Origin: Gammaproteobacteria bacterium
GTDB lineage: Bacteria > Pseudomonadota > Gammaproteobacteria > Eutrophobiales > Eutrophobiaceae
NCBI GenBank assembly: GCA_021773235.1
Contig: JAJFKL010000043.1
Location: 14,072-78,071, forward strand
Reading direction: 5' to 3'
Length of the DNA: 64,000 nt
Every line of letters starts with the position of its first letter. Position 1 is the first letter of the stretch. Made by a program: the position numbers and the translations under genes. Below are positions 23,871 to 64,000 of this stretch, in pieces. The notes under the pieces are model-generated. The model ran no database searches. It was not told the DNA's origin and saw only the letters and a list, made by a program, of their open reading frames with translations.

Positions 23871-23887
23871 GACTTAATGTAGGGCGT

Positions 23888-29119: not shown

Positions 29120-29124
29120 TAGTA

Positions 29125-40141: not shown

Positions 40142-40245
40142 GAAGATGAAACTCCTTTAAGATTACCGTTTTATATTATTATTATTACTTTATTCTATGC
40201 TTTCTCAGCTGAATATAAAGCATTATTAGCAATGTATTACCAAAT

Positions 40246-43486: not shown

Positions 43487-43490
43487 CTGA

Positions 43491-45009: not shown

Positions 45010-45033
45010 AAGGTATTACACATCGCCGGATGT

Positions 45034-45456
45034 CTATTCCCAGTTATTAATGTCCTTATCATCTTTTTCCCCGCCAGTTGTATTATCAGCACCTAAGGTA
45101 TAGAGATCATAGGGGCCATTTTGACCTGGCTCGACATAATGATATGGATTACCCCAGGGGTCGGTCGGTACTTTCTTTTTCTTTAAATAGGGGCCATTCC
45201 AACTTTCAAACCCTGCCGGTTGCGTGGAGAGAGCCTGCAAGCCTTCATCAGAGCTTGGGTAACGACTATTGTCGAGATAAAACAGATCAAGTGCAGCGCC
45301 TATATCTTCAATTTGCAGTCTGGCGGTATCAGATTTTGCCCCACCTACGTACTTCATGACCTGAGGTCCGACTAAGCCAGCCAATAAGCCAAGAATGACA
45401 AGCACAACAAGTAATTCAATTAAGGTAAAGCCAATCTGTTTTTTTGTATTCATCAT
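45034..45456 (-). CDS. gspG: T2SS major pseudopilin GspG
   Basis: The track ORF (196 aa) is over-extended. The start is probably the internal MMNTKKQIGFTLIELLVVLVILGLLAGLVGPQVM (about 141 aa), the classic GspG N-terminus. Confidence 0.85.
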   Translation of the reverse strand: MMNTKKQIGFTLIELLVVLVILGLLAGLVGPQVMKYVGGAKSDTARLQIEDIGAALDLFYLDNSRYPSSDEGLQALSTQPAGFESWNGPYLKKKKVPTDPWGNPYHYVEPGQNGPYDLYTLGADNTTGGEKDDKDINNWE

Positions 45457-45504
45457 AAAATTAATATTAACCATGTGACAATTTATATTTAAGTTAAGGA
45501 TGCT

Positions 45505-45656
45505 TCTATAAATAGTAATTTTTCTGTGAGTGCAAGGAATCATTGCGCGCAGAACCGGAATGTATAAATAATACATGAGGAGATCCTGCTCTGTGAGCAT
45601 TTGAGCACAGTGTTGACACCGCAATCGCGGAAAAAGTGTATTTATAGAGGTGTTCT
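45505..45656. repeat. intra-operon repeat element, copy B (between gspF and gspG)
   Basis: Homologous to 23888..24009. Both copies abut the stop codon of the upstream minus-strand gene. Carries an extra about 25-nt insert relative to copy A. Confidence 0.6.
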
Positions 45657-46889: not shown

Positions 46890-48613
46890 TCACGAGTAAC
46901 GCGCATAACATCGTCTATTGTTGTAATGCCTTTTAGCGCTTTTTTAATGCCATCGATTTGCATGGTGTCCATGCCTTCATTAATCGCTTCACTTTGTAAG
47001 GTCGTGCCGTCAGCATGAGATAAGATAAGTCGTCGTATGGATTCAGAAATTAATAAAAATTCATTTATAACACTGCGGCCAAGATAACCATTATCCATAC
47101 AACCAACACACCCCACCGGCTCGTATAAGGTTATCTCATTACTTGTTTCATACTGGTCAAGTTTTAACTCGTCGATTAACTCTGGCAGAGGCTGAAAAGA
47201 TTTTCGGCATGCGCCACACAATACTCTCACCAGACGTTGTGCAAGAATGCCATTTAAGGTGGAGGTTAAGAGATAATCTTCAACTCCCATATCGAGTAAG
47301 CGAGTAAGCGAACTACCCGCATCGTTAGTGTGCAATGTAGAAAAGACAAGATGGCCGGTCAAAGCTGATTGCACAGCAATACTCGCCGTTTCAAGATCAC
47401 GCATTTCGCCAATCATTATAACATCGGGGTCTTGTCGGACAATGGAGCGCAGCGCATCACCAAAGTTAAGACCAATCTGCGGTTTTACCTGAATTTGATT
47501 GACCCCTTCGAGTTGATACTCCACAGGATCTTCTACCGTAAGTATTTTTTTGTCTGGCGTATTGAGTTGGTCTAGTGCGGTGTATAGCGTGGTCGTTTTA
47601 CCACTACCTGTCGGACCCGTGACTAAAATAATGCCATGCGGAAGTTTTAAAACTTCCTGCACCTTTTCTTTATTCGCTTTAGAAAAGCCGAGTGAATCAA
47701 AACTAAGACTGACATGTTCTTTATCAAGGATACGCATTACCAGACTTTCACCATGCATGGTCGGAACAGTCGACACACGTAAATCAATCAATTTACCTTG
47801 TGTACGTATCTGAATACGTCCGTCCTGTGGTAATCGACGCTCAGCGATATTCATCTTTGCCATAATCTTGACTCTGGAGATAACAGCAGCAGTTGAACGG
47901 GCAGGGGGTGCTTCAGCTTCCTGCAAAACACCATCAATGCGATAGCGTATTTTTAAGCGACTTTCAAAGGGTTCAATGTGAATATCTGAGGCACGTGACT
48001 CAATAGCATTATTAATGACTAAGCTAACGAGTCTTATAACGGGCGCTTCAGCAGCCAAATCTTTTAAGCGTTCAATTGAATCATCCTCAGTGCCATTCTG
48101 GTCAATATCAATCTCTTCAACGATATCTGCGAGTTTTGTTTGACCATCGCCATAGAATCGTTCCAACGCATTTTCAATTTGTGAAATTGAAGCAATCTTT
48201 GGAATGACTTCTTTATTCGTTGCCAGTTTAATTGCTTGCAATGTATAAGAATCGGTTGGGTCTGCCATTGCGACAACAAGACTTTCCTCCTGTTGTTCAA
48301 TTGGAATAACAAAATATTCTTTTAAAAATTTTGCAGGAAGAGCATCTTCCAATAGAGGTGTATTAGGGAAATCATCATTATTTATTTCAGCAAGATTAGT
48401 GACCTTGCTAAGAGTCGACGCCATGTCACGGTCGGAGATAAGTCCTAATTGAACCAAAAGAATACCTAAAGCAGTGCCATTTTCATTATGTAGTTCTATT
48501 ATTCGTGTTAATTCATCCTGCTTCAATTTTCCTTCAGACAGTAGGAATTGAATGACGTCGCCATTGTCAGCATTCTCAGTAGAAGTCTTTTGTTCAGGTA
48601 AAGTCATTAACAT
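46886..48613 (-). CDS. gspE: T2SS ATPase GspE
   Basis: 575 aa. Walker A GPTGSGKTT. Tetracysteine CGAC...CVGC. Asp and His boxes. Confidence 0.9.
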   Translation of the reverse strand: MLMTLPEQKTSTENADNGDVIQFLLSEGKLKQDELTRIIELHNENGTALGILLVQLGLISDRDMASTLSKVTNLAEINNDDFPNTPLLEDALPAKFLKEYFVIPIEQQEESLVVAMADPTDSYTLQAIKLATNKEVIPKIASISQIENALERFYGDGQTKLADIVEEIDIDQNGTEDDSIERLKDLAAEAPVIRLVSLVINNAIESRASDIHIEPFESRLKIRYRIDGVLQEAEAPPARSTAAVISRVKIMAKMNIAERRLPQDGRIQIRTQGKLIDLRVSTVPTMHGESLVMRILDKEHVSLSFDSLGFSKANKEKVQEVLKLPHGIILVTGPTGSGKTTTLYTALDQLNTPDKKILTVEDPVEYQLEGVNQIQVKPQIGLNFGDALRSIVRQDPDVIMIGEMRDLETASIAVQSALTGHLVFSTLHTNDAGSSLTRLLDMGVEDYLLTSTLNGILAQRLVRVLCGACRKSFQPLPELIDELKLDQYETSNEITLYEPVGCVGCMDNGYLGRSVINEFLLISESIRRLILSHADGTTLQSEAINEGMDTMQIDGIKKALKGITTIDDVMRVTRE

Positions 48614-48845: not shown

Positions 48846-49841
48846 ATGTCTATATTGATGGGATGGAGTAAACAAATAATCTCTGCTTCGAAGTTATTAT
48901 TCATTTCTTTATTATGTCTGAGCTTACACTCATATGCTGATACGCAACGTATTATTGAATATGGATACGATGGTGCAGGTAATATAATCAGTATTAGCTC
49001 GACAAGAAATTTAAACTCGCCTGTCATCTCAGATGTATCACCAAACCGTGTGCGCATCAACTCAAACATAGCCTTTACAGCAACAGGTACTGATCTGAAT
49101 AACACGCACGTAACGACTGATCACGTTGACTTAGTCGTTAGTAATGTTAATACCGCTGCCACGACAATCACGTTTGAACTAGATGCCGCAAACAGTGTTC
49201 CACTAGGACAGCATACGTTAACATTTACGACGCTACTCGGTAGTGTAACAGCACTGGTTGAAGTAGTATCCGAGATTCCAACTATTATGGTATTACCATC
49301 ACCTCTTACGTTGGAACCGGGTGGTGAAGTTATTACACTCGATGTTTTTTTTACCGCCAGTGATATAGTTGATCAGACATTAAGCATTTCTATCCCTGAT
49401 CCAAACATTGCGACTGTCAATGTTAGCAGCATTACGATCCTTGCCGGGCAAACCAGCGCAGCACAAACGATTCAGATCACCAGTAATAATCTCGGTTTTA
49501 CTTCACTGGATATTACAACGCCTGATTTGGTGGATGGGCATGTCAATCTATTTGTCACAGATCGTTTCGTTCCCGGAGTAGGGACACACACAACAAATGC
49601 AAAACCTATAAGTTTATTTATTCCTTCAGCTATCAGTGGACAAGGAACCACACAGATATCGCCATTGGTCAGCCCAGTACTCAGTGTCAATGTTGCCGAC
49701 AGTGCAAACGAAGATGTGGTGGTGTCGCCGGTTGTCTCACCCGTGCTGAGTGTGTTGATCAGTAATGAGACAACAACAACTAATTTAATAAGCCCAGTTG
49801 TCACACCTGTAATCAGTATTTTAAAGGAAGAAACGCCATGA
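48846..49841 (+). CDS. secreted protein with N-terminal YD-like motif and Ig/IPT-like domains
   Basis: 331 aa. Signal peptide. RIIEYGYDGAGNIISI resembles an RHS YD repeat. Beta-rich Thr/Val repeats. C-terminal SPVxSPV repeats. First gene of the operon that ends in the giant RHS gene. Confidence 0.6.
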   Translation: MSILMGWSKQIISASKLLFISLLCLSLHSYADTQRIIEYGYDGAGNIISISSTRNLNSPVISDVSPNRVRINSNIAFTATGTDLNNTHVTTDHVDLVVSNVNTAATTITFELDAANSVPLGQHTLTFTTLLGSVTALVEVVSEIPTIMVLPSPLTLEPGGEVITLDVFFTASDIVDQTLSISIPDPNIATVNVSSITILAGQTSAAQTIQITSNNLGFTSLDITTPDLVDGHVNLFVTDRFVPGVGTHTTNAKPISLFIPSAISGQGTTQISPLVSPVLSVNVADSANEDVVVSPVVSPVLSVLISNETTTTNLISPVVTPVISILKEETP

Positions 49842-49903
49842 ACAATTCACTTCAATTTATTACGATTAAATTCATCAAACCCCGGTTTAATGGGAGGACA
49901 ATT

Positions 49904-51415
49904 ATGGAAACCTTGAATAATAAAAATCACTTGTCAGCAACCATTGGCGCATTACTGTTGGTATTAAGTCAATCAGTCACTGCGTTTGACAGTGGCAGTA
50001 CCGGTGCCGATGGTGTCTTAAACCCGACCATAGATACAGTATTAAATGTGCCCGAGCCAGACGGTATTTTTAATTTCACCAGTGTTAATATTCCCTTAGG
50101 TGTGACAGTGACCTTCGCACCTAATACGACCAATACACCAGTGACTTTTTTGTCTAGCGGTGATGTCCAAATTGATGGGACGCTAAGCGTGAATGGCGGT
50201 GATTCTTTTGATGTGGGTACTGCAGGTGATAGTAATCTTGCTGATGATGGGCAACCTGGGTTAGGTGGGCCTGGTGGCTTTAATGGTGGTACTGGCGGAG
50301 ATTTTGGAGCCTCCGAGCGTGGTAGTGATGGACAAGGACCTGGTGCCGGCGGTGGCGGACGATTTCGTACTGGCACCACAGGTTGCGGCGGTGCCGGCGG
50401 CAGCTTTTCGACTTCTGCTGACGATGGAAGTGTAGTTGGTTTTGGTTGTGTTGGAAATAACGGCTTACGTGGGCCGAATTATGGGACAAACGAGCTTTCC
50501 CCGTTGATTGGCGGTTCTGGCGGCGGCGGTGCTGCTAGTGGGACTGTCTATAGAGGTTCTGGCGGCGGCGGTGGCAGCGGCGCGATTCTTATTGCAGCAA
50601 CCGGCATTATTACTGTGAATGGTCTACTTAGCGCGAGAGGTGGAAACTCAGGCGATAGTGCTGGCACGAGTGTGGAAGGTATCGGTGGTACCGGTGGTGC
50701 CGGTAGTGGTGGTGCAATTCGCCTAATCGCTACAGAAATAACAGGTGTAGGTACGTTAAATGTTGAAGAAGGTGTACCCGGTGATTCCATATCACAAAAC
50801 GGAAGAGAAGGTGGAAAGGGTGGCCGCGGACGCATTAGACTGGAATCGCCTTTAGCCACGTTTGCAGGCAGTATAATTCCATCCAATAGCTCAAGTATCT
50901 TTTCTCTTAGCAGTGTTCCGGGCAACGTCTTTGTCGCCGGCATGCCCAGTTTGTCAATCACCACAGTTGATGGCCAAACTGCACCAGTGTTGCCTACCGG
51001 TAATCTTGATCCAGCTAATACCGACATTACCTTGCCGGTCAGCACAGTAAATCCTGTAACAATCAATTTTGCGACTACGAATGTACCTGTGAATGGTACG
51101 ACAGCCGTCGACTTAACAGTTGTCCCAGAGTTTGCAACTGCAATAACAGTAACTTCAACAGTCTTAGCAGGGGATACAAATTCAGCCACAGCCAGTGCAT
51201 CCGTGTCTATCCCGCCGGGATTAAGTGTGTTGCAAGCCGAACTGAGTTTCACTGTGACGGTGGCGATGGGTGAAGAATTTTCTCGCTTTGCAGAAGGTGA
51301 GCAGGTTGCAAAAGTAAAGCTTAATGTCAATCCTGAAGGTCAATCCGAAACAACGTTTGTCACAATCAGTGGGGAAGAATTTACCTTTCTCTCGAATGCT
51401 ATCGCAATGCGCTGA
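49904..51415 (+). CDS. secreted glycine-rich (GGxGG) beta-helix-like protein
   Basis: The track ORF starts at 49838 (ATGA overlap with the upstream gene). The signal peptide begins at an internal Met (METLNNKNHLSATIGALLLVLSQSVTA). Contains long GGxGGxG tracts. Confidence 0.55.
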   Translation: METLNNKNHLSATIGALLLVLSQSVTAFDSGSTGADGVLNPTIDTVLNVPEPDGIFNFTSVNIPLGVTVTFAPNTTNTPVTFLSSGDVQIDGTLSVNGGDSFDVGTAGDSNLADDGQPGLGGPGGFNGGTGGDFGASERGSDGQGPGAGGGGRFRTGTTGCGGAGGSFSTSADDGSVVGFGCVGNNGLRGPNYGTNELSPLIGGSGGGGAASGTVYRGSGGGGGSGAILIAATGIITVNGLLSARGGNSGDSAGTSVEGIGGTGGAGSGGAIRLIATEITGVGTLNVEEGVPGDSISQNGREGGKGGRGRIRLESPLATFAGSIIPSNSSSIFSLSSVPGNVFVAGMPSLSITTVDGQTAPVLPTGNLDPANTDITLPVSTVNPVTINFATTNVPVNGTTAVDLTVVPEFATAITVTSTVLAGDTNSATASASVSIPPGLSVLQAELSFTVTVAMGEEFSRFAEGEQVAKVKLNVNPEGQSETTFVTISGEEFTFLSNAIAMR

Positions 51416-51420
51416 GTAAT

Positions 51421-54400
51421 ATGCGCGTAAGGGACAAGGCACTAAGTAAAATGAACAAACAACAGAGTGAGACTAAACACACGACGTTATCGCGACGCGT
51501 GTCAATACGGAAGCGTAAATGGTTAGTCGGTGTAACAGCGATGACAATTATTGCTGGTATTACAGCAACAGCCGTTTTGGATTTTAGTAAACAACGCTCG
51601 CTTAAAAATGCTAAAACAGTCACGCCTGCTCACGTGACTGTTAATAATAAACTTGCTCAAGCTGCTCTTATTAATAATTACGCTCAACTCCCCTTACAGT
51701 TCGAACAAAACCGTGGTCAAACCAATGACGAAGTGGAATACGTCTCACGTGGCTCTGGTTATACCTTATTTCTAACCCCAACTGAAACCGTGCTGACGTT
51801 ACAACGAAGCAGCGGCAAACAAAACGAGCAAGCCGTTGTTAGAACCTCCTTTGTCAATGCCAATGTGCCAGTAGTCTTTAATGGCAACAACGTCTTGCCC
51901 GGCAAAGTGAATTACCTCATTGGCCGTGATGAAAGCAAATGGCTCACCGATATCCCGACCTATACCGATGTCATCGCCAAAGAGATCTACCCTGGCATCG
52001 ACCTGCGTTATCACGGTGACCAAAGGCAACTCGAATATGATTTTATTGTTGCACCGGGAGTCAATACCGATGACATCCAACTACAGTTTAGTGGCGTTGA
52101 CCTATTACGTATCGGTGAAGAAGGGCAGTTAGTTATCGAAACAGCACAAGGCACACTGCAGCACAAAAAACCGATCGTCTATCAAGACATCAGCGGTGAA
52201 CGAATTACTGTCGAAGGTAACTACCTTCTGAGTGAAAATAAAATAGTAAGTTTTAAGTTAGGGCAATACGATCCAAACCATGAACTAATAATCGATCCTA
52301 TCCTCGACTACTCGACGTACCTTGGAGGTGAAGCGGATGACAGAGGCCTAGCCATAGCGGTTGATGATGCAGGCAATGCTTATGTTGCGGGCACCACCGT
52401 ATCGGCAAGTTTCCCGGTCGTGAATGCTTACCAAACAAGCCTTAGTGGGAGTAAAGATACCTTTATCGCCAAACTGAATGCCAATGGTGATGCTTTGGTC
52501 TACGCGACCTACTTTGGTGGCAGTGGTGATGAAGATGACGACGATGATGATGATAGTGATGATGACTACGGTGAAGACGACGAAGACGATAATGACGAAG
52601 GCGATTCTGATAAAGATACCGGTAAAGACATTACTGTTGATGCCAATGGATATCTTTATATTACTGGCAGCACCAACTCCGATACTGACTTCCCCATCGT
52701 CAATGCCGTACAAAGTACTTACGGCGGTGGTGATCGCGATGCTTATGTCGCCAAACTCTCGGTCGATGGCAGCAGCTTACTTTTTTCCACCTACCTCGGT
52801 GGAAGTAATAAAGACAAAGGCTTTGGCATTGCTTTAAGCAATAATGGTAACGTCTTTGTTACGGGTAAGACCAAATCAAACAACTTCCCAACGACGGCCA
52901 ATGCTTATCAAACCAGCCATGCCGGTAACGGCGATGCGTATGTTGTGCAACTGGCGGGCGACGGTTCACAACTCAACTATGCTACCTACTTGGGTGGCTC
53001 TAAATCCGATAATGCAAAAGCCATTGCAATAGATAGTTCAGGGAATGCTGCTATCACTGGTGTTACCAAATCCAAGAATGATTTTCCGTTACACAATGCC
53101 CTGCAACCGAGCTTTGGTGGTGGCGGACGCGATGCCTATGTCGCACAACTCAATGCCAGTGGTAATGCACTAAACTACTCCACCTATTTAGGCGGTGCCA
53201 AAAAAGACAAAGGCCGCGGAATTACGATCGATAGTCATGACAACGTTATCGTAGTTGGTTTAACAAAATCCAAGACCGACTTTCCCTTAGTCAATTCTCT
53301 ACAGTCCACCTATGGTGGTGGCAGTGATGACGGCTTCATCAGCAAACTCAACAGTGCAGGCAGTGGCCTAACTTTCTCTACCTACCTCGGTGGTGAAAAG
53401 ACCGACAGACTAAATAGTGTTGTGGTCGATAGCAACGATGACATCTATGTTGTCGGCACCACCAAATCTACCAACGGAATTCCGACCACTGATGCCGAGC
53501 AGGCACAACTGTCTGGTAGCAAACGCGATGCCTTTATTACCAAACTGAGTCATGATGGCAGTAGTGTTATTTATGGTACTTACCTAGGGGGTAGCAAGAG
53601 CGACCGCGGTAAAGATATCGCCGTTGATGGACAAGATGCCTACATCACCGGTGTCACCAAATCCGATATTGATTTCCCCACCCTGAATGCTCTGCAACCT
53701 CTATTCGGCGGCAGTAATAAAGATGCGTTTGTTGTCAAAATAGCCGAAGAGGTTACCAATCAAGATCCAGAAATTACATCAACACCAATAACCGATGCAT
53801 TGGCAGGACAACTCTATAGCTATGATGTCGATGCGACCGATGCAGATGAAGACGATGTTTTAGTTTACAACCTACAAGTCTTCCCCACAGGTATGGTTAT
53901 TGATACCAACACAGGACTCATTAGTTGGACGCCGACTGTAATCGGGGTAGTCAATGTCACTGTTCAAGTCGATGACGGTAACAATGGTACTGCAACACAA
54001 AGTTACAGTATTAATGTTACCGATTCAGATGTGATCGCACCAACGATCACGATTACCTCACCGCAAGAGGGTTTAAACACCAATCAGGCAAACCAGACAA
54101 TCACGGGCACACTTGATGAAACGGCGACATTGACATTGAATGGTAATTTGGTTGCCGTTAATCTGGACTTAAGCTTTAGTGCTACTGTTACTCTAGTTGA
54201 AGGTGTAAATAGTTATACTTTTGAAGCCACCGATGCAGCAACCAATTTTGGTGCAGCGTCACTAACATTGAATTTGGATACAGTCTTACCTGTCGTCACG
54301 ATTACATCGCCACAAGATGGACTCGTTACTAATCAAACCACACAAACGATCATCGGTAGTCTAAGTGAACCTGCAACATTCACGATCAATGGACAAGCAG

Positions 54401-57400
54401 TTACCGTTAACCCTGATCTCAGTTTTAGCACTAATGTCATCTTAGTCGAAGGTGCGAATGCAATCACCATTGAAGCGACGGATGCCGTAAGCAATGTCGG
54501 CAATGCTGCGTTAACTTTAAACCTCGATACCGAACCACCCGTTATTACGATTAACGCACCACAAGATGGATTAATTACGAATCAATCAGCACAAACCATA
54601 ACCGGTAGTTTAAGCGAAACAACTACGTTAACGATCAATGGACAAACAGTCACGGTTAATCCTGACTTAACCTTTAGTACAGATGTCACCTTAGTTGAAG
54701 GTGCAAACAGTTATACTTTTGAAGCCACCGATGCAGCAACCAATCTTGATGCAGCGTCACTAACATTGAATTTGGATACAGTCTTACCTGTCATCACGAT
54801 TACATCGCCACAAGATGGACTCATTACTAATCAAACCACACAAACGATCATCGGTAGTCTAAGTGAACCTGCAACACTCACGATCAATGGACAAGCAGTT
54901 ACCGTTAACCCTGATCTCAGTTTTAGCACTAATGTCATCTTAGTTGAAGGTGCGAATGCAATCACCATTGAAGCGACGGATGCCGCAAGCAATGTGGGGA
55001 ATGCAAGCTTAACCTTAATCCTTGATACGGTTGCACCGGATATCACAATTACTGATCCGCTTGATGGCAGTTTAACCAACCTTGTTGATCAAACCATTAC
55101 CGGTAATTTGGATGAAATAGCAACACTGACATTTAATACGGCCAGCGTACCCGTTAACCCGGACAATACATTTAGCGTTGGCCCGGTTGCATTAATAGAA
55201 GGGGGTAACACGTTTACCTTTGAAGCGACAGATACGGCAGGCAATGTTAGCACACAATCGATAACAGTCACACTCGATACCATTGCGCCTGCCATTACCG
55301 TGAACGATCCGGTCGATGGCAGTGTCACCAATCAAGCAAACCAAACTATTACTGGCTCGGTTGATGAGGCTGGTGCCTTTAGGATTAACGGTACTGCTGT
55401 GACACTAAACTCGGACAATACTTTTAGTTCCGATGTGCTCTTGGTTGAAGGCGAAAACACGTTTACGCTTGAGATCACCGATGCGACAATGAATGTTAAT
55501 ACTCAAACCTTAACGGTAACATTAGATACTGTTGCAGCAGTAATCACAGTGGTAAGCCCACAAGAGGGGTTGGTTACCAACCAGGCAGCACAAACCATAA
55601 CGGGTAGCATAAACGAAACCGCAAGCCTAACAATTAACGGGCAAGCTGTGTCCATCAACCCGGACAATACTTATAGTTTTGCCGTTACCTTAATGGAAGG
55701 TGTCAATAGCTTTACTCTGGAAGCGATAGATACGGGGACAAACACAAGCACACAAAACCTAACTCTGAACCTGGATACCATTACACCGGTAGTCACGATT
55801 ACCAATCCGGCTGATGGTTTACTATCTAATAACCCAAGTCAACTGATAACGGGTAGTGTTAGTGAAGTGGCATCGTTAACCATTAATGGACAAGCAGTAA
55901 GCCTAAACCCGGACAATAGTTTTAGCTTTGGCCCAATCACTATGGCAGAAGGTGCGAATACCATCACCGCGATTGCGACGGATGCGGCAACGAATAGCAC
56001 AACCACTACCATTAATGTAAGTCTCGATACCGTGGCTCCGGTGATTAGCGTTACCAGCCCAGTTGATGGTGCGTTGACGAATCAAAGTCAAATTGTTGTA
56101 GCAGGGAGCTTAAGTGAACAAGGTAACCTCACAATAAATGGACAAGCTATCACAGTAAATCTGGATGGCAGTTTTAGTGCGATAGTTAGCCTTGTTGAAG
56201 GTGCAAATACAGTTACCTTAACGGCAAGCGATGCAGCAACGAATGTCAGTCAAAGTGTTCTAACCGTCAATAGTGATACGATTGCACCGATCATTAACAT
56301 TACGACGCCAATCAATCGCAGTAGCACTAACCAAGCAGCGCAATTGGTCACAGGCTCATTAAGTGAAGCAGCAACCTTATTAATAAACGGTCAGGCAGTC
56401 ACAGTGAACCCCGACTTAAGCTTTAGCTTTGGTCCGATCACATTGGCCGAAGGGGCAAACTCGATCAGCGTAAGCGCGACCGATGCGGCAACGAACAATA
56501 GTGCGGGTAACGTCAGTGTCACCCTGGATACAGTCATACCCACGTTAATCTTGGATAGCCCAACAGGGGACATCCTCACTAACCAATCAACCGTTAGCTT
56601 TAGCGGTAGCGTAGATGAAACGGTAAGTCTTACGATTAATGGTCAAGCGGTAACCCAAAATCCGGACAATACCTTTAGCGCAAATGTCACGGTAGCTGAA
56701 GGCAGTAATGTAGTCGATGTTGTTGCAACCGATGCAGGTGGTAATAGCGTCACACAAAGCATCAACATCACTATCGATACGATTGCACCAAGCACGCCGA
56801 TTATTAGCTTAACCAATCGCGGTAATCCGCTAAATGGAATCGTTATGGTGACGGGTTTACCCGGTGCCGCTGAGCCGGGAACATTAATACACGTTATTAA
56901 TCCCGTCACCAATTATGAAGCCTTGGTCTTGGCACAAAGCGATGGTAGCTTTAGTACCGATGTTGCTGGTTTCGCCAATGATATCTTTTCTATCATTACG
57001 ATGGATGCGGCAGGTAATATCAGCGCACCTGTAGTTTTGATTCCAAACCCACCATTAGCATTAACGCTGGATGCCATTGGTAACAAAACCGCGCCCTTAG
57101 GGCAAATTACTCGCTTTACGGTAACTGCAAATGACAGTGAAGGTAATGTAATCGCCTTAGGTTTAACGCCACTTCCATTACCCGCTGGTATGGAATACAA
57201 CATCGCAACAGGTGAATTCAGTTTCCGACCAACAAGCGGACAAGAAGGGGACTATAATTTAACCTTTAGTGCCTTATCGGGTGATGAGCGTGTAGTTGAA
57301 AATGTCACCGTTAATGTATCTGCACCAAACGCAGCAGATCCAACCGATTTAACCGGTCGTATTTTAGATGCCAGTAGCATGCAAGGTGGCACGATTGAAC

Positions 57401-60400
57401 CGATTGTCGGTGCAACCGTATCATTCCTCGCGACAGGCGTGAGTACAACGACGGATACACAAGGCTTCTTTACCTTAAGTGGTTTGCCTGCGAATGCAGA
57501 AGTATTTGATATCGATACCAGCACGGCACAAGCAGGACCGGGCGGTACCAGCTATGCCGGTTTCCGTGAACAGTTTCCGTTAGTGATTAACGTAACGAAT
57601 ATTGTTGAGCGACCGTTCTACTTACCACGGTTGGCAGCGGAAAGTTTAACTACCGTTGATCCTCTGGTAGAAACGATTGTTAATAACCCAACATTAGGCA
57701 TTGATTTAAGTATCGCTGCAGGAAATGCGATTAATGATTCAGATGGGCAACCGTTTACCGGACAGGTTTCGATTTCGGAAGTACCGCGTAATCTGGCACC
57801 AGCTAACTTACCCGAGTTTATGGATCCGACTTTATTATTCACAATCCAACCGGTCGGTGTGAGTTATACCGTACCCGCACCAATTACTATCGCCAACACT
57901 GAAGGCCATGCGCCTAATAGCGAAGTGGATCTCTGGTCGGTTGATCCGGATCTGGGTCAATTTGTGATCGTAGGTACCGGACAAGTTTCAGCAGATGGGT
58001 CTGAGATCGTAACGATCTCAGGTGGTATCCGTGCTAATGATTGGCATGCATTCCAGCCACCGAATCCGAATACCGGTGGTTCTGGTACTAATGGGAAGAA
58101 ACCATGCCCAACGTGTCCTGAGGAAGATCTTACTTCTACGGTTAGTTTGAACGACGGTCATATGGGAACGCGACATACGCTGCCAGCATATCGTTCGTTA
58201 GAAACTTCACGTGCGTTAACTTTTAGCTATCGCACCTTCAGAGCCTATCCGAGTCCATCAATTCCATATAATAGTGCTATCGATGTCCGTAGTACGGTAC
58301 CAGCAACAGTCTCTTATGATCTGGAAGTCGGTGGCCTGAAACAAGGTCAGGAAGTCTTTATTGATACTTCCGGCTTCAGTGAAGGACTAACTGAAGCATT
58401 TAGTACAGCGATATCATTTGATGCAGCAGAATTTGATTCAGGAATGTATGACTATCGTTTGAAAGTTACCAGTAATTTTAATGGCGGTTCACGTCAAAGT
58501 TTGATTGTTGAAGATGTCGTAATGGTTGTGAATGAACAGCAAAGTCCTTTTGGTGCAGGCTGGATGCTAGAAGGTTTGTATAGCCTTCGGTTTAATGAAG
58601 ATAACAGTGTCACCATGATTGCGCCGAATGGTAACTCCATTTCTTATGATGCCACAGCGACACCGGATCTGTTTGATTCTCCAGACAGCGATTACGCTGT
58701 TTTCAACCGTAACCCGGATGGCAGCTACACCCATACTGAAAAAGATGGTGTCAAAATGCACTTTAATGCCGAAGGACAAATTACCGAGCATGAAGATCGT
58801 AATAACAATATCACGGCTTATGCCTATGATGTTGACGGTAAGTTAATAACGATTACTGATCCAGTGGGCTTAATCACGACCTTTGCTTATGACATAAATG
58901 GCTTGTTAGAAACAGTAACTGATCCAGCTACACGTGTGACTAACTTTGAATACGATGCCACGGGTAATATGACCAAGGTAACTTATCCTGACAATACCTT
59001 CGAGACCTATGAATACGATAATCGTCACTTGATGACGGCACACGAAGATGAACGCCAAAATCGTTTTACCGATCGTTACGATGCCTTTGGTCGAATTATT
59101 GATGGTACCTTGCCGGATGGTACGGTTCGCGCGGGAATTGGACAGAACTCAGCAGCATTAATTGATGTTTCCAGCGGCGTTGGTACAAGTGTCAATCCAG
59201 CACCCGTCATGCGTCCAGCAGATGTTGATGGTGAATACGTTGATGGTCGTGGCAATCCTTCTAATAAAGAACTAGATCCACAGGGCCGTGCAACATTAGA
59301 AATGGACGAAATAGGGCGTATGACATTGCATACGCGCGACGCCGATTCCAATCCAACACAGACAACACGTCCGATAGGTTCCGTTGTAACTCGAACCTTT
59401 GATACCTTCGGTAATGTGCTAACGCAGAAAGAAGAGTTTAATACGGCGACGACAACGTATACCTACGATCCATTTAGTTTGGTAACAACAGTAACAAACC
59501 CACGTAACCACACGACAACAATCACGCGTGATCCGGCTGATGGTAACCCATTAACAATTGTAAATGAGTTAGGTCATACAACGACCATGGTTTATGACAG
59601 CCGCGGCCTTGTTACCTCAATGACCAGCCCGAACGGATTAGTAACGACGTATACGTACAACACCGAAGGCCTCATGGACACCAAGACTGAAACACCGCCA
59701 GTCAGTAGCCCGGGTAATGTGCGTCTTTGGACTTATGCCTATTACCCAACGGGACTTTTACAAACTGTGAATACACCCGATGGGATTACACTGACCTATA
59801 CTTATGATGACCGTAGCTTCCTGACCAGTGTTACCGATAATCTCAATCAATCGATTATCTACACCTACGATGACCATAAAAACGTGACTCGAACAGAAAC
59901 GCGCAGTAGCGATGGTAGCTTGGCCTTGCTCGTTGACAGCATCTACGATAATCGTAATCGCCTGACACAGACTAAAGCGCCGCACGTTGGCATCGAAGAA
60001 TCCATCACGCAACGCATACTCGATGAAAATAGTAATTTGATTGGCTTAATTGATCCAAACGGTAATCCCCGCAGTAATGTCTATGATGCTTTCAATCGAC
60101 TCGATAATAACACCCATAGAGAGGGGGGTATTACGGACTACACTTATGATGATCAAGATCGTATTACCAAAGTCGAAGCCCCGAACGGTGTCGTTACTGA
60201 CTATGAATACGACATCATCAGTCGTCGCACCAAAGAGATAAGCCCAGACCGAGGCACGATTACTTATGTGTATGACTTGGCTAACAACGTCACCACCATC
60301 ACCGAGGGCAGAGGCATTGTTGCCAGCATGACCTATGATGAATTGGAACGTGTGGGCACCAAGACCTACCCGAACACCATCATTGGTAAAAATGAGAATG

Positions 60401-62082
60401 TCACCTATACCTATGATACCTGTAACTTTGGTTTAGGCTTTCTCTGTACCCGTGCCGATGAATCGGGAACGTATGACTACAACTACGATGCCTATGGCAA
60501 TATGACCGATGGCACCTTCACCGAGATCGAAGGCACCGTCTATACTATGAGTTACCTGTATGACGATGGTGACCATATCATCCAAAGCACCTATCCAAGT
60601 GGCAGGGTCGTTGATTATGCAAGAGATGGCGTACGCCGTGTCGAAGCAATCGACACCACACTGAATGGCACAGCACAGAGTATCGTCAGCAACATCCAAT
60701 ACCGGGGTGACAACCAAATCACACAATGCACCTTTGGTAATGGATTGATTGATGAAAGAAGCTATGATCTACAAGGACGACTCACCAATCAATTACTGCG
60801 AGATGCCTTGAATACACTGATTGACGACAGGACATATACCTACGACAAAAATAGCAACGTGTTAAACATTGCGACGAACGTAGAGGATAATGCGTATCTG
60901 TACGACAAGTTAGATCGACTAACGAGCGACACCATTGATAACAACACACCGTTCGACTTCAGTTATGACTTGAACGACAATCGCTTGACTAAAAACTTAC
61001 AAGACCTGACCTTGCAAGAATTCTTTGAGCAACAGGAAAATAGTAATCGCATCAGCATACTGGAAACCGTGCAAGCGGGCGCGACGCCGATAGATACCAC
61101 CCCCAATCGCGACCTCATCTATAACGACGTGGGCAGACTCTATCAACTGATAGAAGAGGGCACCTTAAAGGCCGAATACATCTACAACGATGCGGGGCAA
61201 CGAACAAGGAAAACAAACTACCAAGCTGATGGTATCACTGTAGACAATATCACCATCTACCACTACGACCATATGGGTTATTTGATAACGGAAACGACAG
61301 AGCTTGGTGACCTTATCAAAGATTACATTTGGCAAGAAGGTATGACACCTGTTGCCCAAATCGACAACAACGCCGGAACAGAGAGTATTGTTTATTTGTA
61401 TACAGATCATTTGATGACGAACCGACTTGCAACAGACGACACACAAGCAGTTGTATGGCGTTGGGAAGGGGAAGCGTTTGGGAATACGGCGGCGCAGGAA
61501 ATCTCAGGAGTAAGTGTTAATCTCCGATTCCCCGGACAGTACTTTGATTCTGAGACGAATCTGCATTACAACATGGCTCGCTATTACGACCCACAACTTG
61601 GAAGATATATAACAAGTGACCCAATTGGGTTAAATGGTGGATTAAATACGTATGTGTATGTTAACCAAAATCCTATTCTATCTTCTGATCCAGAAGGTCA
61701 AGCATCGATTGGTGGAGTAGCTGCAACTGTTGTACTTGCTGTCGGAGCCGCAGCTAGGTTATGTAGTAAATTTCCCAAAGCTTGTAACAAAGCTCTTAAA
61801 TGTATGAGGAATCCAAAACTATGTAGAAAAAAAGCATGTAATAAGGTTAACAGGGCTATGCATAAAGTATGTGATTCAGCACGTTCTTGTAAAGGCGGTG
61901 ACTCATGCATGGTTATAATTAGAAAAGCTGCGCATTTATCTTCATGTTTAGCAATGAGATATGCAGTAAGATTATGTCATGGTCGTAATAACGACCCAAG
62001 ACCAACAGGCCATGCGCAAGCAATACGGGAAACTAAAGGTAGAATTAAAGATTGTTGGGATAAGTTTAAATGTTGCTCTTAA
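51421..62082 (+). CDS. giant RHS-family polymorphic toxin (SBBP beta-propeller repeats + Ig-like repeat array + YD repeats + RHS core + C-terminal toxin domain)
   Basis: 3553 aa. N-terminal signal-anchor. SBBP-type repeats (YVAGTTVSASFPVVNAYQT..., 52320-53730). Cadherin-like/putative-Ig segment. About 12 Ig-like repeats of about 80 aa (54016-56790). CarbopepD-reg-like segment. Many YD repeats (58740-61320). RHS core PGQYFDSETNLHYNMARYYDPQLGRYITSDPIGL (DPxGL at about 61618). Then an AT-rich, Cys-rich C-terminal domain of about 135 aa. Confidence 0.9.
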   Translation: MRVRDKALSKMNKQQSETKHTTLSRRVSIRKRKWLVGVTAMTIIAGITATAVLDFSKQRSLKNAKTVTPAHVTVNNKLAQAALINNYAQLPLQFEQNRGQTNDEVEYVSRGSGYTLFLTPTETVLTLQRSSGKQNEQAVVRTSFVNANVPVVFNGNNVLPGKVNYLIGRDESKWLTDIPTYTDVIAKEIYPGIDLRYHGDQRQLEYDFIVAPGVNTDDIQLQFSGVDLLRIGEEGQLVIETAQGTLQHKKPIVYQDISGERITVEGNYLLSENKIVSFKLGQYDPNHELIIDPILDYSTYLGGEADDRGLAIAVDDAGNAYVAGTTVSASFPVVNAYQTSLSGSKDTFIAKLNANGDALVYATYFGGSGDEDDDDDDDSDDDYGEDDEDDNDEGDSDKDTGKDITVDANGYLYITGSTNSDTDFPIVNAVQSTYGGGDRDAYVAKLSVDGSSLLFSTYLGGSNKDKGFGIALSNNGNVFVTGKTKSNNFPTTANAYQTSHAGNGDAYVVQLAGDGSQLNYATYLGGSKSDNAKAIAIDSSGNAAITGVTKSKNDFPLHNALQPSFGGGGRDAYVAQLNASGNALNYSTYLGGAKKDKGRGITIDSHDNVIVVGLTKSKTDFPLVNSLQSTYGGGSDDGFISKLNSAGSGLTFSTYLGGEKTDRLNSVVVDSNDDIYVVGTTKSTNGIPTTDAEQAQLSGSKRDAFITKLSHDGSSVIYGTYLGGSKSDRGKDIAVDGQDAYITGVTKSDIDFPTLNALQPLFGGSNKDAFVVKIAEEVTNQDPEITSTPITDALAGQLYSYDVDATDADEDDVLVYNLQVFPTGMVIDTNTGLISWTPTVIGVVNVTVQVDDGNNGTATQSYSINVTDSDVIAPTITITSPQEGLNTNQANQTITGTLDETATLTLNGNLVAVNLDLSFSATVTLVEGVNSYTFEATDAATNFGAASLTLNLDTVLPVVTITSPQDGLVTNQTTQTIIGSLSEPATFTINGQAVTVNPDLSFSTNVILVEGANAITIEATDAVSNVGNAALTLNLDTEPPVITINAPQDGLITNQSAQTITGSLSETTTLTINGQTVTVNPDLTFSTDVTLVEGANSYTFEATDAATNLDAASLTLNLDTVLPVITITSPQDGLITNQTTQTIIGSLSEPATLTINGQAVTVNPDLSFSTNVILVEGANAITIEATDAASNVGNASLTLILDTVAPDITITDPLDGSLTNLVDQTITGNLDEIATLTFNTASVPVNPDNTFSVGPVALIEGGNTFTFEATDTAGNVSTQSITVTLDTIAPAITVNDPVDGSVTNQANQTITGSVDEAGAFRINGTAVTLNSDNTFSSDVLLVEGENTFTLEITDATMNVNTQTLTVTLDTVAAVITVVSPQEGLVTNQAAQTITGSINETASLTINGQAVSINPDNTYSFAVTLMEGVNSFTLEAIDTGTNTSTQNLTLNLDTITPVVTITNPADGLLSNNPSQLITGSVSEVASLTINGQAVSLNPDNSFSFGPITMAEGANTITAIATDAATNSTTTTINVSLDTVAPVISVTSPVDGALTNQSQIVVAGSLSEQGNLTINGQAITVNLDGSFSAIVSLVEGANTVTLTASDAATNVSQSVLTVNSDTIAPIINITTPINRSSTNQAAQLVTGSLSEAATLLINGQAVTVNPDLSFSFGPITLAEGANSISVSATDAATNNSAGNVSVTLDTVIPTLILDSPTGDILTNQSTVSFSGSVDETVSLTINGQAVTQNPDNTFSANVTVAEGSNVVDVVATDAGGNSVTQSINITIDTIAPSTPIISLTNRGNPLNGIVMVTGLPGAAEPGTLIHVINPVTNYEALVLAQSDGSFSTDVAGFANDIFSIITMDAAGNISAPVVLIPNPPLALTLDAIGNKTAPLGQITRFTVTANDSEGNVIALGLTPLPLPAGMEYNIATGEFSFRPTSGQEGDYNLTFSALSGDERVVENVTVNVSAPNAADPTDLTGRILDASSMQGGTIEPIVGATVSFLATGVSTTTDTQGFFTLSGLPANAEVFDIDTSTAQAGPGGTSYAGFREQFPLVINVTNIVERPFYLPRLAAESLTTVDPLVETIVNNPTLGIDLSIAAGNAINDSDGQPFTGQVSISEVPRNLAPANLPEFMDPTLLFTIQPVGVSYTVPAPITIANTEGHAPNSEVDLWSVDPDLGQFVIVGTGQVSADGSEIVTISGGIRANDWHAFQPPNPNTGGSGTNGKKPCPTCPEEDLTSTVSLNDGHMGTRHTLPAYRSLETSRALTFSYRTFRAYPSPSIPYNSAIDVRSTVPATVSYDLEVGGLKQGQEVFIDTSGFSEGLTEAFSTAISFDAAEFDSGMYDYRLKVTSNFNGGSRQSLIVEDVVMVVNEQQSPFGAGWMLEGLYSLRFNEDNSVTMIAPNGNSISYDATATPDLFDSPDSDYAVFNRNPDGSYTHTEKDGVKMHFNAEGQITEHEDRNNNITAYAYDVDGKLITITDPVGLITTFAYDINGLLETVTDPATRVTNFEYDATGNMTKVTYPDNTFETYEYDNRHLMTAHEDERQNRFTDRYDAFGRIIDGTLPDGTVRAGIGQNSAALIDVSSGVGTSVNPAPVMRPADVDGEYVDGRGNPSNKELDPQGRATLEMDEIGRMTLHTRDADSNPTQTTRPIGSVVTRTFDTFGNVLTQKEEFNTATTTYTYDPFSLVTTVTNPRNHTTTITRDPADGNPLTIVNELGHTTTMVYDSRGLVTSMTSPNGLVTTYTYNTEGLMDTKTETPPVSSPGNVRLWTYAYYPTGLLQTVNTPDGITLTYTYDDRSFLTSVTDNLNQSIIYTYDDHKNVTRTETRSSDGSLALLVDSIYDNRNRLTQTKAPHVGIEESITQRILDENSNLIGLIDPNGNPRSNVYDAFNRLDNNTHREGGITDYTYDDQDRITKVEAPNGVVTDYEYDIISRRTKEISPDRGTITYVYDLANNVTTITEGRGIVASMTYDELERVGTKTYPNTIIGKNENVTYTYDTCNFGLGFLCTRADESGTYDYNYDAYGNMTDGTFTEIEGTVYTMSYLYDDGDHIIQSTYPSGRVVDYARDGVRRVEAIDTTLNGTAQSIVSNIQYRGDNQITQCTFGNGLIDERSYDLQGRLTNQLLRDALNTLIDDRTYTYDKNSNVLNIATNVEDNAYLYDKLDRLTSDTIDNNTPFDFSYDLNDNRLTKNLQDLTLQEFFEQQENSNRISILETVQAGATPIDTTPNRDLIYNDVGRLYQLIEEGTLKAEYIYNDAGQRTRKTNYQADGITVDNITIYHYDHMGYLITETTELGDLIKDYIWQEGMTPVAQIDNNAGTESIVYLYTDHLMTNRLATDDTQAVVWRWEGEAFGNTAAQEISGVSVNLRFPGQYFDSETNLHYNMARYYDPQLGRYITSDPIGLNGGLNTYVYVNQNPILSSDPEGQASIGGVAATVVLAVGAAARLCSKFPKACNKALKCMRNPKLCRKKACNKVNRAMHKVCDSARSCKGGDSCMVIIRKAAHLSSCLAMRYAVRLCHGRNNDPRPTGHAQAIRETKGRIKDCWDKFKCCS

Positions 62083-62563
62083 ATTAAATCGAGATTTTAA
62101 TATTGTGAATAAAGATGAATTATTAAATTGCTTAGAGAGTGCTTTTGCTAACATAGCTTACCCGAAGAATAGAGATTTCTATAAAGCTATAGCTGAAAAA
62201 GAATATGAAGATTATATTGACCCTGGGGAGAATAAAAGGTGGGAAGATCTTTCGAAAGATGAACTACAAAAGCATTACGATTTTATTTATTACCTGGATT
62301 CTGATGCTAAAGTTTATTACTTGCCTTCCTATATAAAATTAATTCTTGAAAACAGTAAGTGTAAAGAAGATGAACATTTTATAGATTTGTGCACAAGTTG
62401 TTTGTTTACACTGTTATCTGAGATTGATATCAAAACCTTAAATGCTAGGCAGCTTCAAATTATTAATCATTTTTTGAATTATTGCCGAGAGATTATTTAT
62501 CCAATATTTGATTTAAATATAACTCATTTAAAAAAAATACAGAAACATTTAGAAGGGAATTAA
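62012..62563 (+). CDS. candidate cognate immunity protein for the RHS C-terminal toxin
   Basis: ORF immediately 3' of the toxin gene. No in-frame ATG after the RHS stop, so the start is either ATG 62012 (71-nt overlap) or GTG 62105. AT-rich like the C-terminal domain. Confidence 0.4.
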   Translation: MRKQYGKLKVELKIVGISLNVALKLNRDFNIVNKDELLNCLESAFANIAYPKNRDFYKAIAEKEYEDYIDPGENKRWEDLSKDELQKHYDFIYYLDSDAKVYYLPSYIKLILENSKCKEDEHFIDLCTSCLFTLLSEIDIKTLNARQLQIINHFLNYCREIIYPIFDLNITHLKKIQKHLEGN

Positions 62564-62582: not shown

Positions 62583-62936
62583 ATGTTATCAGAATATACA
62601 AAAAAGAGAGTCTCAATTGTATTATTGTTTTTTTGTTTTTCAACCAGCGTTCTATATTCCTATATACTATCATTTTCTGAACGTGGCCTTCCTTTTCTTG
62701 ATTGGTTCAACATTTCTCTCTATATTATATGGTTTGGAATACTGGCTTGGATTGCATGGAATATTCATAGAGATAAACCAAGAGCGAAAGATGTGGTTTT
62801 ATTTTTTTCTTGCCTAGTAATATTATTAACAGGGTTTGACCTTTATGAGAAAGATGGTTCTTTACTACTGGCAGGAATTAGTTTGATTGAAGCATCGTTT
62901 CTTTTTTCAGTCTATGTACTTCTTAAGCAAGAATAA
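62583..62936 (+). CDS. small membrane protein (3-4 TM), possible orphan immunity protein
   Basis: 117 aa, hydrophobic. Located in the toxin/immunity graveyard downstream of the RHS gene. Confidence 0.35.
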   Translation: MLSEYTKKRVSIVLLFFCFSTSVLYSYILSFSERGLPFLDWFNISLYIIWFGILAWIAWNIHRDKPRAKDVVLFFSCLVILLTGFDLYEKDGSLLLAGISLIEASFLFSVYVLLKQE

Positions 62937-63142: not shown

Positions 63143-63200
63143 GAGCTCACTGAGCTTCCCAGACATTACAGAATAATTTAGATGATTCTTCTAAATGGTC

Positions 63201-63804: not shown

Positions 63805-64000
63805 ATGGCTATGACAAGGAATGCGCTAAGTCGAACATCTCACCTTAAGCGAACATCTGTATCTCGACGTTCCTCCTGGAATAATTCATCGTTAAATCAT
63901 CGTGGATACAGACGAAAATCTGTCGTAATTACGACAAATAAATTCAAAGCACTTCCCGGCCAGTACTTTGATGCGGAGACCAATCTGTATAATAGGGGAC
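63805..64000 (+). CDS. orphan rhs C-terminal fragment (3'-truncated by window edge)
   Basis: ORF reaching the window end encodes ...KFKALPGQYFDAETNLYNRG. It matches the RHS core motif of the main gene (LRFPGQYFDSETNLHYN) at the nucleotide level (63952..64000 versus 61531..61580). The upstream about 45 aa show no RHS similarity. Confidence 0.5.
   Translation, partial: MAMTRNALSRTSHLKRTSVSRRSSWNNSSLNHRGYRRKSVVITTNKFKALPGQYFDAETNLYNRG

Follow-up and report, generated by a model that had tools for sequence, protein, structure and literature searches.

How does a giant RHS protein with a Sec-type N-terminus leave the cell that makes it, and how would it reach its target? The question is raised by a gene in a 64,000-nucleotide stretch of Gammaproteobacteria bacterium DNA (GenBank assembly GCA_021773235.1, contig JAJFKL010000043.1, positions 14,072 to 78,071 of the forward strand), which we call the window. 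Delivery and target entry of RHS and teneurin-like toxins outside the type VI secretion system (T6SS) are an acknowledged open question, and no delivery machinery was evident in the 2026 structural study of bacterial teneurin-like proteins (TLPs; Raoelijaona et al., 2026, PMC13018210; structures 9ifo and 9pt5). We propose that the gene encodes a Sec-exported, T6SS-independent, teneurin-like RHS/YD toxin, that it works with two putative secreted proteins encoded immediately upstream, A and B, and that it most likely crosses the outer membrane through the adjacent Xps-type type II secretion system (T2SS). Judging from the sequence, we consider this reading probable, with clear room for error. 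An initial annotation of the window had described the RHS protein; it had missed the co-oriented, conserved upstream genes, the T2SS operon and the published proposals for Sec/T2SS-dependent RHS toxins.

The RHS protein and its C-terminal cargo

The RHS gene is a single unbroken open reading frame (ORF) on the forward strand, from the ATG at 51421 to the stop codon at 62080-62082, and encodes 3,553 amino acids (aa; ~379 kDa), as the initial annotation had stated. We searched for homologues by sub-region and called domains from Pfam and NCBIfam profile searches. These give, in order, a Sec-type N-terminus, DUF7948, an SBBP propeller, immunoglobulin (Ig)-like domains, a transthyretin (TTR)-like domain, a ZU5-like domain, a plug, the YD shell with its RHS core, and the cargo (Table 1). 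Every domain listed beforehand (SBBP, Ig, CarbopepD-reg-like, YD repeats and core) was matched in the profile scan, CarbopepD_reg_2 weakly (aa 1990-2026, 21 bits against a Pfam cut-off of 32.2).

The case for a toxin begins with the shell and core. RHS_repeat matched over nine stretches (Pfam, E 2.8e-50), TIGR01643 with 125.9 bits and YD_repeat_2x likewise (NCBIfam), and the RHS-associated core TIGR03696 lies at aa 3352-3427, scoring 89.7 bits against a cut-off of 32.5. Within the core, PGQYFD stands at aa 3371, the DPIGL motif at aa 3400, where autoproteolysis had been placed beforehand, and a second DPEG at aa 3423, together forming what appears to be an intact aspartyl autoprotease site with predicted cleavage. 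The cargo starts past the second DPxG motif with a hydrophobic N-terminal segment, followed by a conserved Cys-rich domain. All 43 relatives of this cargo that an exhaustive HMMER search turned up among 1.84 billion representative proteins lie at the extreme C-terminus of their carriers. The long carriers use at least four unrelated scaffolds: RHS proteins with PF03527, DUF6531-RHS proteins, non-RHS Golvesin_C, and a 3,028-aa DUF642-He_PIG-Glucodextran_B-TTR-RHS protein that belongs to the present RHS family. About 10 Cys are conserved in the cargo alignment, as are K, R, D and H residues. Some relatives of the whole gene cassette hold known toxin modules (Tox-WTIP, PT-HINT or EndoU) at the cargo position. 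Relatives with shells 50-68% identical have unrelated C-termini. GC content is 0.45 in the shell and core, 0.39 in the cargo tip, 0.28 in the following DUF6714 ORF and 0.31 in the next ORF. Only this sharp fall at the tip was used as composition evidence; the high GC of 50-62 kb was rejected as proof of recent transfer, as the Gly-rich B and the Thr/Ala-rich stalk could raise it.

On repeats and core, then, the protein classes as an RHS polymorphic toxin, and its cargo behaves like the mobile tip of one. Because RHS repeats, core and both DPxG motifs coincide with a rare, always terminal, mobile tip, with known toxin modules in relatives and with the GC steps, we regard it as a candidate toxin, half of a candidate toxin/immunity pair. 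This supports the earlier description of an RHS/YD toxin with an autoproteolysis motif in its core; its C-terminal module is mobile.

The candidate immunity gene directly downstream encodes an acidic DUF6714 protein (pI 5.1) without a signal peptide. Its profile match begins at residue 44 of the 194-aa longest ORF, which is the in-frame GTG at 62105, and the 104-nt overlap of that longest ORF with the RHS gene is therefore probably not real. A literature search for DUF6714 returned nothing. The next ORF reads as a protein of four transmembrane helices, which may be either a second or alternative immunity protein or what is left of another toxin/immunity module. Should the hydrophobic, Cys-rich cargo act on membranes, this four-helix protein could be the one that truly confers immunity. 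Further on, a Phd/YefM-type antitoxin gene (63201-63473, reverse strand; Pfam E 1.4e-11) stands ahead of an orphan RHS core fragment, and a short ORF at ~62997-63144 resembles an antitoxin remnant by eye. Overall, what follows the toxin gene resembles a graveyard for toxin/immunity modules.

At the other end, the basic n-region is followed by a hydrophobic stretch (WLVGVTAMTIIAGITATAVL, then ATA|V) that may be either a Sec signal peptide or a signal anchor. DUF7948 follows at aa 94-294 (Pfam, E 5e-65), and the propeller at aa 295-780, where SBBP matched in six stretches (Pfam, E 1e-39) and seven blade starts of the form Y(S/A)TYLGG span aa 297-718. Blade 2 holds an acidic insertion, GDEDDDDDDDSDDDYGEDDEDDNDEGDSDKD, of ~30 mainly Asp/Glu residues (aa 369-400; 52525-52620). 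The DUF7948+SBBP module is common in extracellular proteins, with 7,973 matches mainly in proteins of 700-1,400 aa, in a homologue search that returned no match longer than 1,498 aa, nor the query's own 3,553-aa entry, and so under-counts giant fusions. Absence of RHS among these matches is biased and was not used to argue that the fusion is rare. We found no PAAR, DUF4150, VgrG, SpvB or TcdB-mid domain in the RHS protein at E<=0.01 (Pfam, NCBIfam), in agreement with the initial annotation's claim that a PAAR/VgrG-type T6SS N-terminus is lacking. A cryptic PAAR domain was considered and rejected, there being just 93 residues ahead of DUF7948, which are the signal or anchor.

The stalk that follows has ~14 Ig-like domains: a He_PIG domain, 11 units of 83-84 aa (aa 872-1787; 11 Glucodextran_B stretches, E 4e-146, plus Big_13, in Pfam), one divergent Ig-like domain and a second He_PIG, so that the initial count of about 12 repeats was fair. 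A 498-nt tandem duplication spanning two Ig units (1.9 copies, 54157-55109, 87% matches at the DNA level) indicates that the stalk expanded recently, and two relatives have fewer units (locus L020, 2,879 aa; L092, 2,776 aa).

For the junction between stalk and shell, we built an AlphaFold2 model of aa 1961-2700 from 32 sequences (predicted local distance difference test score, pLDDT, 86.8). It places in order a TTR-like sandwich, a second beta domain, a disordered linker (model residues 261-281, low pLDDT), a plug-like beta domain (strands at 281-410) and, from ~aa 2380, a regular spiral of YD beta-hairpins. The second beta domain (aa ~2060-2215) is conserved, gives ZU5-like fold matches and ends in a C-terminal GG.R..WH motif; it sits where TLPs have their 'TIP' domain. 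The linker's CPTCP pair accounts for two of only five Cys outside the cargo, and relatives also have a Cys pair with G/T-S after it. In the model the plug-like domain runs directly into the hairpins, and Pfam gave no NHL match. Relatives have unrelated insertions at this point, or none. The insertions, at the place where teneurins hold their NHL propeller, are LamG-like, jelly-roll-like or a ~300-aa alpha/beta domain, evidence that this position is an insertion hot spot in bacterial relatives. In a lipoprotein-signal subgroup of the TTR-junction-RHS family, the protein is split into two ORFs at one point (...SQSIGL, then stop), as in L005/L006 (10001-15545) and at the same point in five proteins (P0148, P0153, P0155, P0158 and P0160).

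Genes A and B and the neighbouring T2SS operon

A, B, the RHS gene and the small downstream gene or genes are co-oriented and tightly spaced, and A, B and the RHS protein each have a Sec-type signal. No Pfam or NCBIfam model matched the window's A or B. In A, a lone YD repeat (YGYDGAGNIISI) stands at the mature N-terminus directly past the signal peptide, a placement kept in most members and the hallmark of the family; a short variant of A in relatives matches RHS_repeat, TIG and Big_2. B, for which the public call starts at ATG 49904 (503 aa), belongs to a family without annotation that has at least 2,039 members at E<=1e-5 among the 8,000 candidates scored. Shuffled sequence yielded more sites than the real one in a promoter/terminator scan, which was left aside.

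To describe the gene neighbourhood of this family, we scanned a B-family alignment against metagenome contigs, which gave 80 loci (numbered with an L), and added others through the junction region and contig look-ups; a scan of genome contigs with the junction region gave only one relative. All loci were annotated by tblastn with the window proteins and by all-against-all clustering. A TTR-junction or RHS shell lies within the next three same-strand genes in 20 of the 26 B loci with at least 6 kb downstream, and in three more of the 26 an Ig/TTR giant is interrupted by a contig end or a small antisense ORF. Where at least 1.5 kb ahead of B was available (54 loci), the gene directly before B is A-like in 43. 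The giant proteins downstream of B in related loci all begin with a Sec-type signal. The A-B-RHS order recurs in L002/L090, L020, L092, L007, L008, L091 and many metagenome loci, and the cassette is present in the complete genomes of Sulfuriflexus mobilis (AP018725.1) and Ectothiorhodospiraceae bacterium 2226 (CP054689.1), cultured carriers that make experiments feasible.

The window's full architecture of A, B and a DUF7948/SBBP-Ig-TTR-RHS protein is found with other tips in L020, L002/L090 (a Gammaproteobacteria metagenome-assembled genome) and L092, whose shells are 68%, 61-62% and 50% identical to that of the window, and in fragmented form in L001 and L004. L016 and L083 differ in that A, and not the RHS protein, has the DUF7948/SBBP module. 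This swap, of the Rosetta-stone type, argues for A and the RHS protein acting in one assembly.

Other genes accompany the cassette in some loci. Genes for a rhodanese-like and a transglutaminase-core protein (a cysteine-protease fold) lie directly upstream of A in L010 (4137-6043), L016, L018 and L047, and in L010 and L018 they stand between T2SS genes and A; both may encode additional proteins with a part in processing or another accessory role. In L035, L037, L040, L050, L051, L060, L067 and L072, a ~750-aa protein with multihaem-cytochrome and tetratricopeptide repeat parts is encoded ahead of a short A gene, preceded in L035, L037 and L050 by a ~150-aa ORF.

Divergent from the cassette runs a complete Xps-type T2SS operon. 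Its Pfam matches comprise T2SSE with MshEN, T2SSF, T2SSG, GspH, N_methyl pseudopilins, T2SSK, PilN, T2SSM_b and Secretin with N0. NCBIfam equivalogs scored above their cut-offs for GspE (655.6 against 630), GspD (489.9 against 351), GspM_XpsM (130.8 against 60) and GspG, and GspF was at its cut-off (423.1 against 424). The divergent layout, with a presumed substrate beside the machine, resembles that of pulA/pul and lapA/hxc. GspE (46886-48613, reverse strand) has an N-terminal domain of the c-di-GMP-binding MshEN type (Pfam, E 2.7e-17; the NCBIfam c-di-GMP motif is below cut-off), which suggests that secretion may be controlled by c-di-GMP.

The linkage recurs. T2SS genes lie in the flank of seven of the 33 B-family loci for which at least 9 kb of flank was fetched, and five independent cases of adjacency give a binomial p of 2e-5 to 3e-3 at a background of 1-3%. 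All four loci with an SBBP-type RHS gene and a visible upstream region (the window, L090, L004 and L092) have the arrangement T2SS, divergent A-B, RHS; GspE is 74%, 54% and 51% identical to the window copy in L090, L004 and L092, and 39-74% over the linked loci as a whole. Other arrangements occur. In L011 and L023, A and B head a same-strand run of gspF-E, pilMNOP-like genes, gspD and pseudopilins, and in L010 and L018 the order is gspD, pseudopilins, rhodanese, transglutaminase-like, A, B, giant.

Table 1. Features of the RHS locus, in window coordinates (position 1 is the first nucleotide of the window)
Feature	Coordinates	Strand	Description and basis
T2SS operon	38000..48613	-	Complete, Xps-type: gspE-F-G-H-I-J-K-L(PilN-type)-M-C/N-like-D; divergent from cassette
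Gene A	48846..49841	+	331 aa; signal peptide, lone YD repeat, Ig/TIG-like domains; sequence
Gene B	49838..51415	+	525-aa ORF; signal peptide, Gly-rich right-handed beta-helix, two C-terminal Ig-like domains
RHS protein, aa 1-93	51421..51699	+	Basic n-region, 20-residue hydrophobic segment, linker; read from sequence
DUF7948 and seven-bladed SBBP beta-propeller, aa 94-780	51700..53760	+	Pfam; blade motifs
Ig-like stalk, aa 785-1965	53773..57315	+	Pfam; repeat parsing
TTR-like (CarboxypepD_reg) domain, aa ~1976-2060, and beta domain, aa ~2060-2215	57346..58065	+	
Linker with Cys pair CPTCP (aa 2229/2232) and plug-like beta domain, aa ~2241-2370	58081..58530	+	AlphaFold2 model
YD-repeat shell and RHS-associated core	58558..61701	+	Pfam, NCBIfam, PDB sequence matches, fold matches
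C-terminal cargo domain, aa 3428-3553	61702..62082	+	126 aa, 13 Cys, pI 10
Candidate immunity gene, DUF6714	62105..62563	+	152 aa from GTG 62105; Pfam E 3.7e-11
117-aa protein	62583..62936	+	Reads as four transmembrane helices; sequence; no family match (Pfam, NCBIfam)
Orphan RHS C-terminal cassette start (...LPGQYFDAETNLYNRG)	63805..64000	+	Read from sequence; ends with the window

No T6SS gene was found among all window ORFs of at least 100 aa. Elsewhere the window holds chromosomal housekeeping genes: nuoLMN, hopanoid genes and a polyunsaturated fatty acid (PUFA)-type synthase. Within 18645-35907, the hopanoid set includes a squalene-hopene cyclase (24010-25977), an SQS/PSY-family gene (26087-27145) and an MMPL transporter (19650-22280), and the synthase next to it is a 2,260-aa KS-AT-4xACP-KR-DH protein (29125-35907), accompanied by an enoyl-reductase-like gene (27440-29119). 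Both are unrelated to the toxin finding.

Export, delivery and the competing explanations

Under the mechanism that we favour, A, B and the RHS protein are made with Sec-type signals from their co-oriented, tightly spaced genes, as read in the sequence. In the periplasm the YD shell would close round the 126-aa C-terminal domain, as motif and model suggest, and the DPIGL...DPEG aspartyl site would free the cargo inside the shell. Shell and stalk may be parted by another cut, close to the ZU5-like domain or the Cys-pair linker. The T2SS would then carry the folded proteins out, a step that the conserved gene linkage points to, and the product would be either released or kept on the surface. There the DUF7948/SBBP propeller, on its stalk of ~14 Ig domains, may bind a ligand on the target-cell surface, with A (YD hairpin and Ig) and B (beta-helix and Ig) serving as a co-secreted adaptor or tether of the same complex. 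Finally, the basic, Cys-rich cargo with its hydrophobic leader would enter or reach the target, and the DUF6714 protein, or possibly the four-helix membrane protein, would protect sibling cells.

A more far-reaching claim would make A and B, joined in the SBBP subfamily by a dedicated Xps-type T2SS, the delivery apparatus that Sec-dependent RHS and teneurin-like toxins have so far seemed to lack, and would make the whole a widespread, hitherto undescribed three-protein extracellular toxin system. The T2SS would export a pre-loaded YD cocoon; holding it on the producer, or docking it on the target, would be the task of the beta-helical B and of A with its orphan YD hairpin. We offer this tentatively and doubt it more than we believe it; if true, it would answer the point that the 2026 TLP study left open.

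Several observations weigh against the T2SS-dependent export that we favour. Most A-B-RHS loci are without a T2SS gene within 10 kb (for example L007, L008, L009, L091 and both complete genomes), and the link may be specific to one subfamily, or the T2SS may be encoded elsewhere. The background rate of T2SS genes is a rough estimate, and several of the T2SS-linked loci share ancestry, which makes the counts partly non-independent. Judged by known secretin dimensions, the T2SS would be handling an unusually large cargo in a folded cocoon on a 379-kDa protein. The 20-22-residue N-terminal hydrophobic segment of the SBBP subfamily could be an uncleaved inner-membrane anchor. The proposed roles of A and B rest on synteny, signal peptides and one domain swap. 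The candidate immunity protein has no signal peptide, though the cargo is Cys-rich.

The main alternative is that the Sec-exported toxin reaches the surface or the medium without the T2SS. The neighbouring T2SS would be a general secretion system, as its resemblance to standard Xps-type systems would fit, and the linkage would be hitch-hiking. The route might be an uncleaved inner-membrane signal anchor, lysis or vesicles as for Tc toxins, or a pathway built by A and B. The scarcity of T2SS genes within 10 kb of most cassettes and the long hydrophobic segment in the SBBP subfamily speak for such a route, as does the lack of any delivery machinery found for TLPs (PMC13018210). However, a T2SS is the neighbour in at least five arrangements and lineages, its GspE being 39-74% identical to the window copy, and in all four evaluable SBBP-type loci; A and B head a same-strand T2SS operon in L011 and L023, and the cassette loci showed no gene for a holin, an endolysin or an Omp85 protein. 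Nor would an uncleaved anchor exclude the T2SS, since PnlH of Dickeya is a T2SS substrate with an uncleaved signal anchor; to our knowledge, T2SS substrates share no universal sequence motif. We think a T2SS-free route unlikely, while giving it real weight.

The strict order of A, B and RHS genes could also mean a self-contained three-part toxin with a logic like that of Tc ABC, A and/or B translocating the cargo and the T2SS merely exporting the parts. B is beta-helical and fibre-like, the lone YD hairpin of A could dock onto the YD shell, and the SBBP module swaps between A and the RHS protein. Against this, A and B are unlike TcA and far smaller, neither has a VRP1, TcA_TcB_BD or neuraminidase-like match in Pfam or NCBIfam, and no pore-forming or membrane-insertion element is evident in them, which leaves this explanation improbable.

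We give very little credence to a third explanation, that the protein is a giant adhesin or cell-cell recognition protein and no toxin, its YD shell being structural as in metazoan teneurins. The N-terminal 2,000 residues are wholly adhesin-type modules and teneurins are the top fold matches, but the autoproteolytic DPxGL...DPxG core is intact, and metazoan teneurins are without that core (PMC13018210). The C-terminus is a mobile cassette common to other RHS scaffolds, relatives hold EndoU, Tox-WTIP and PT-HINT, and low-GC small ORFs and an orphan RHS tip lie downstream of the gene. Weakest of all, and barely credible, is a T6SS effector with its PAAR, VgrG or adaptor partner encoded elsewhere: the C-terminal part of the shell is closest by sequence to T6SS Rhs proteins (8qja and 7q97) and the cargo family is also carried by classical RHS proteins with PF03527 or DUF6531, but the Sec-type N-terminus is incompatible with cytoplasmic loading on a T6SS spike, the shell comes after ~2,200 residues made up of domains of extracellular type, the profile scans showed none of PAAR, DUF4150, VgrG and EagR, nor any T6SS gene in the 64 kb, and the protein reaches 151 with the NCBIfam RHS_core equivalog, whose cut-off is 2000.

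The locus thus offers testable candidates for the T2SS-dependent export that we favour, namely two conserved, unannotated, putatively secreted partners and a T2SS operon beside all evaluable SBBP-type members. It also adds an unannotated family of Cys-rich, basic cargo and, where stalk meets shell, a ZU5-like domain that is a candidate for processing. The conserved partners and the adjacent secretion operon matter more here than the giant size of the protein, for together they open the delivery of RHS and teneurin-like toxins outside the T6SS to experiment.

Comparison with known RHS and teneurin-like systems

TLPs are defined by a 'superfold' of FN-plug, NHL beta-propeller and YD shell in which NHL lies between plug and shell; upstream of the plug they have a TTR-like domain and then the 'TIP' domain (PMC13018210). 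In our RHS protein, in contrast, the sole propeller is the N-terminal DUF7948/SBBP one, ~1,500 residues upstream. The protein falls outside the strict TLP definition, yet it would probably work like TLPs and is closest to teneurins by fold: teneurins head the fold matches of the shell region, which also include T6SS Rhs and a TLP, with Tc proteins scoring lower. By sequence the shell is nearer to T6SS Rhs than to TLPs, and the best PDB sequence matches of its C-terminal part are T6SS Rhs proteins (8qja, E 6e-41; 7q97, E 1e-39). When the TTR-junction profile was compared with PDB sequences, only TTR-like parts matched, and not the TLP TTR-TIP sequence. The Bacillus inaquosorum TLP has a plug-loop Cys and a G|S cleavage site (PMC13018210), of which the Cys pair with its following G/T-S is reminiscent. 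TLPs have no described upstream A and B genes or T2SS linkage, whereas the RHS protein has both.

The initial annotation had also invoked teneurin/Tc BC-fusion logic and a possibly TcB-like propeller. By fold the core is teneurin-like, although NHL is missing between plug and shell; the Tc part did not stand. Tc TcB-TcC cocoons (4o9x, 4igl) share the YD/RHS cocoon, the autoprotease, a variable C-terminal toxin (here a candidate one) and a multi-gene locus with our system. SpvB, TcdB_toxin_midN and TcdB_toxin_midC were absent from the RHS protein, A and B in Pfam and NCBIfam, which places the protein outside the Tc BC group, and the propeller, far upstream of the shell, is the common extracellular DUF7948+SBBP module.

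T6SS Rhs effectors (RhsA, 7q97; Tse5, 8cp6; RhsP, 8h8a; VgrG-Rhs, 8qja) have the same YD shell and plug, with the aspartyl autoproteolysis and encapsulated toxin that are predicted for the RHS protein. They lack a signal peptide and use PAAR, prePAAR, VgrG or Eag chaperones; the RHS protein is the opposite on both counts. With a Sec signal present and no PAAR or VgrG, it is not a T6SS Rhs protein. WapA of Bacillus subtilis and Bcn-A of Xanthomonas perforans, an RHS bacteriocin that is active in cell-free supernatant and needs small neighbouring ORFs (PMC7259588), resemble it in being T6SS-independent and in starting with an export signal; their C-terminal toxin and cognate immunity gene have candidate counterparts here. 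WapA, unlike the RHS protein, is anchored to the Gram-positive wall by cell-wall-binding repeats, and the 1,398-aa Bcn-A has small helper ORFs downstream, whereas the partners A and B lie upstream. An SBBP/Ig stalk and A-B partners are not described for WapA or Bcn-A in the parts of the literature that we consulted.

The nearest published classes are those for which Sec- or T2SS-dependent export was already proposed. Zhang et al. (2012; PMC3482391) listed RHS toxins with signal peptides as 'T2SS/Sec-dependent', some with beta-propellers and ZU5, and gave no signature neighbourhood genes for the Sec-dependent RHS class; the gspG-linked XRhs F VIII of Xanthomonas and RRhs F II of Ralstonia were predicted to be T2SS substrates in a 2025 preprint (bioRxiv 10.1101/2025.05.08.652813). 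Common ground with these classes is a signal peptide with RHS repeats, to which a beta-propeller and an N-terminal ZU5-type processing domain may be added, a variable C-terminal toxin with an immunity gene (both candidates here), and secretion by Sec/T2SS as predicted from sequence or neighbours. Where the Xanthomonas and Ralstonia genes are linked to gspG, a whole gspC-M/D operon is adjacent here, and the A-B pair, the DUF7948/SBBP head and the 11-repeat Ig stalk fall outside the descriptions of both classes. Sec/T2SS-type RHS toxins are known already as a general idea; what this locus brings is three things that the cited literature leaves undescribed: A and B as a pair, the cargo family, and the linkage of a whole T2SS operon to the SBBP subfamily.

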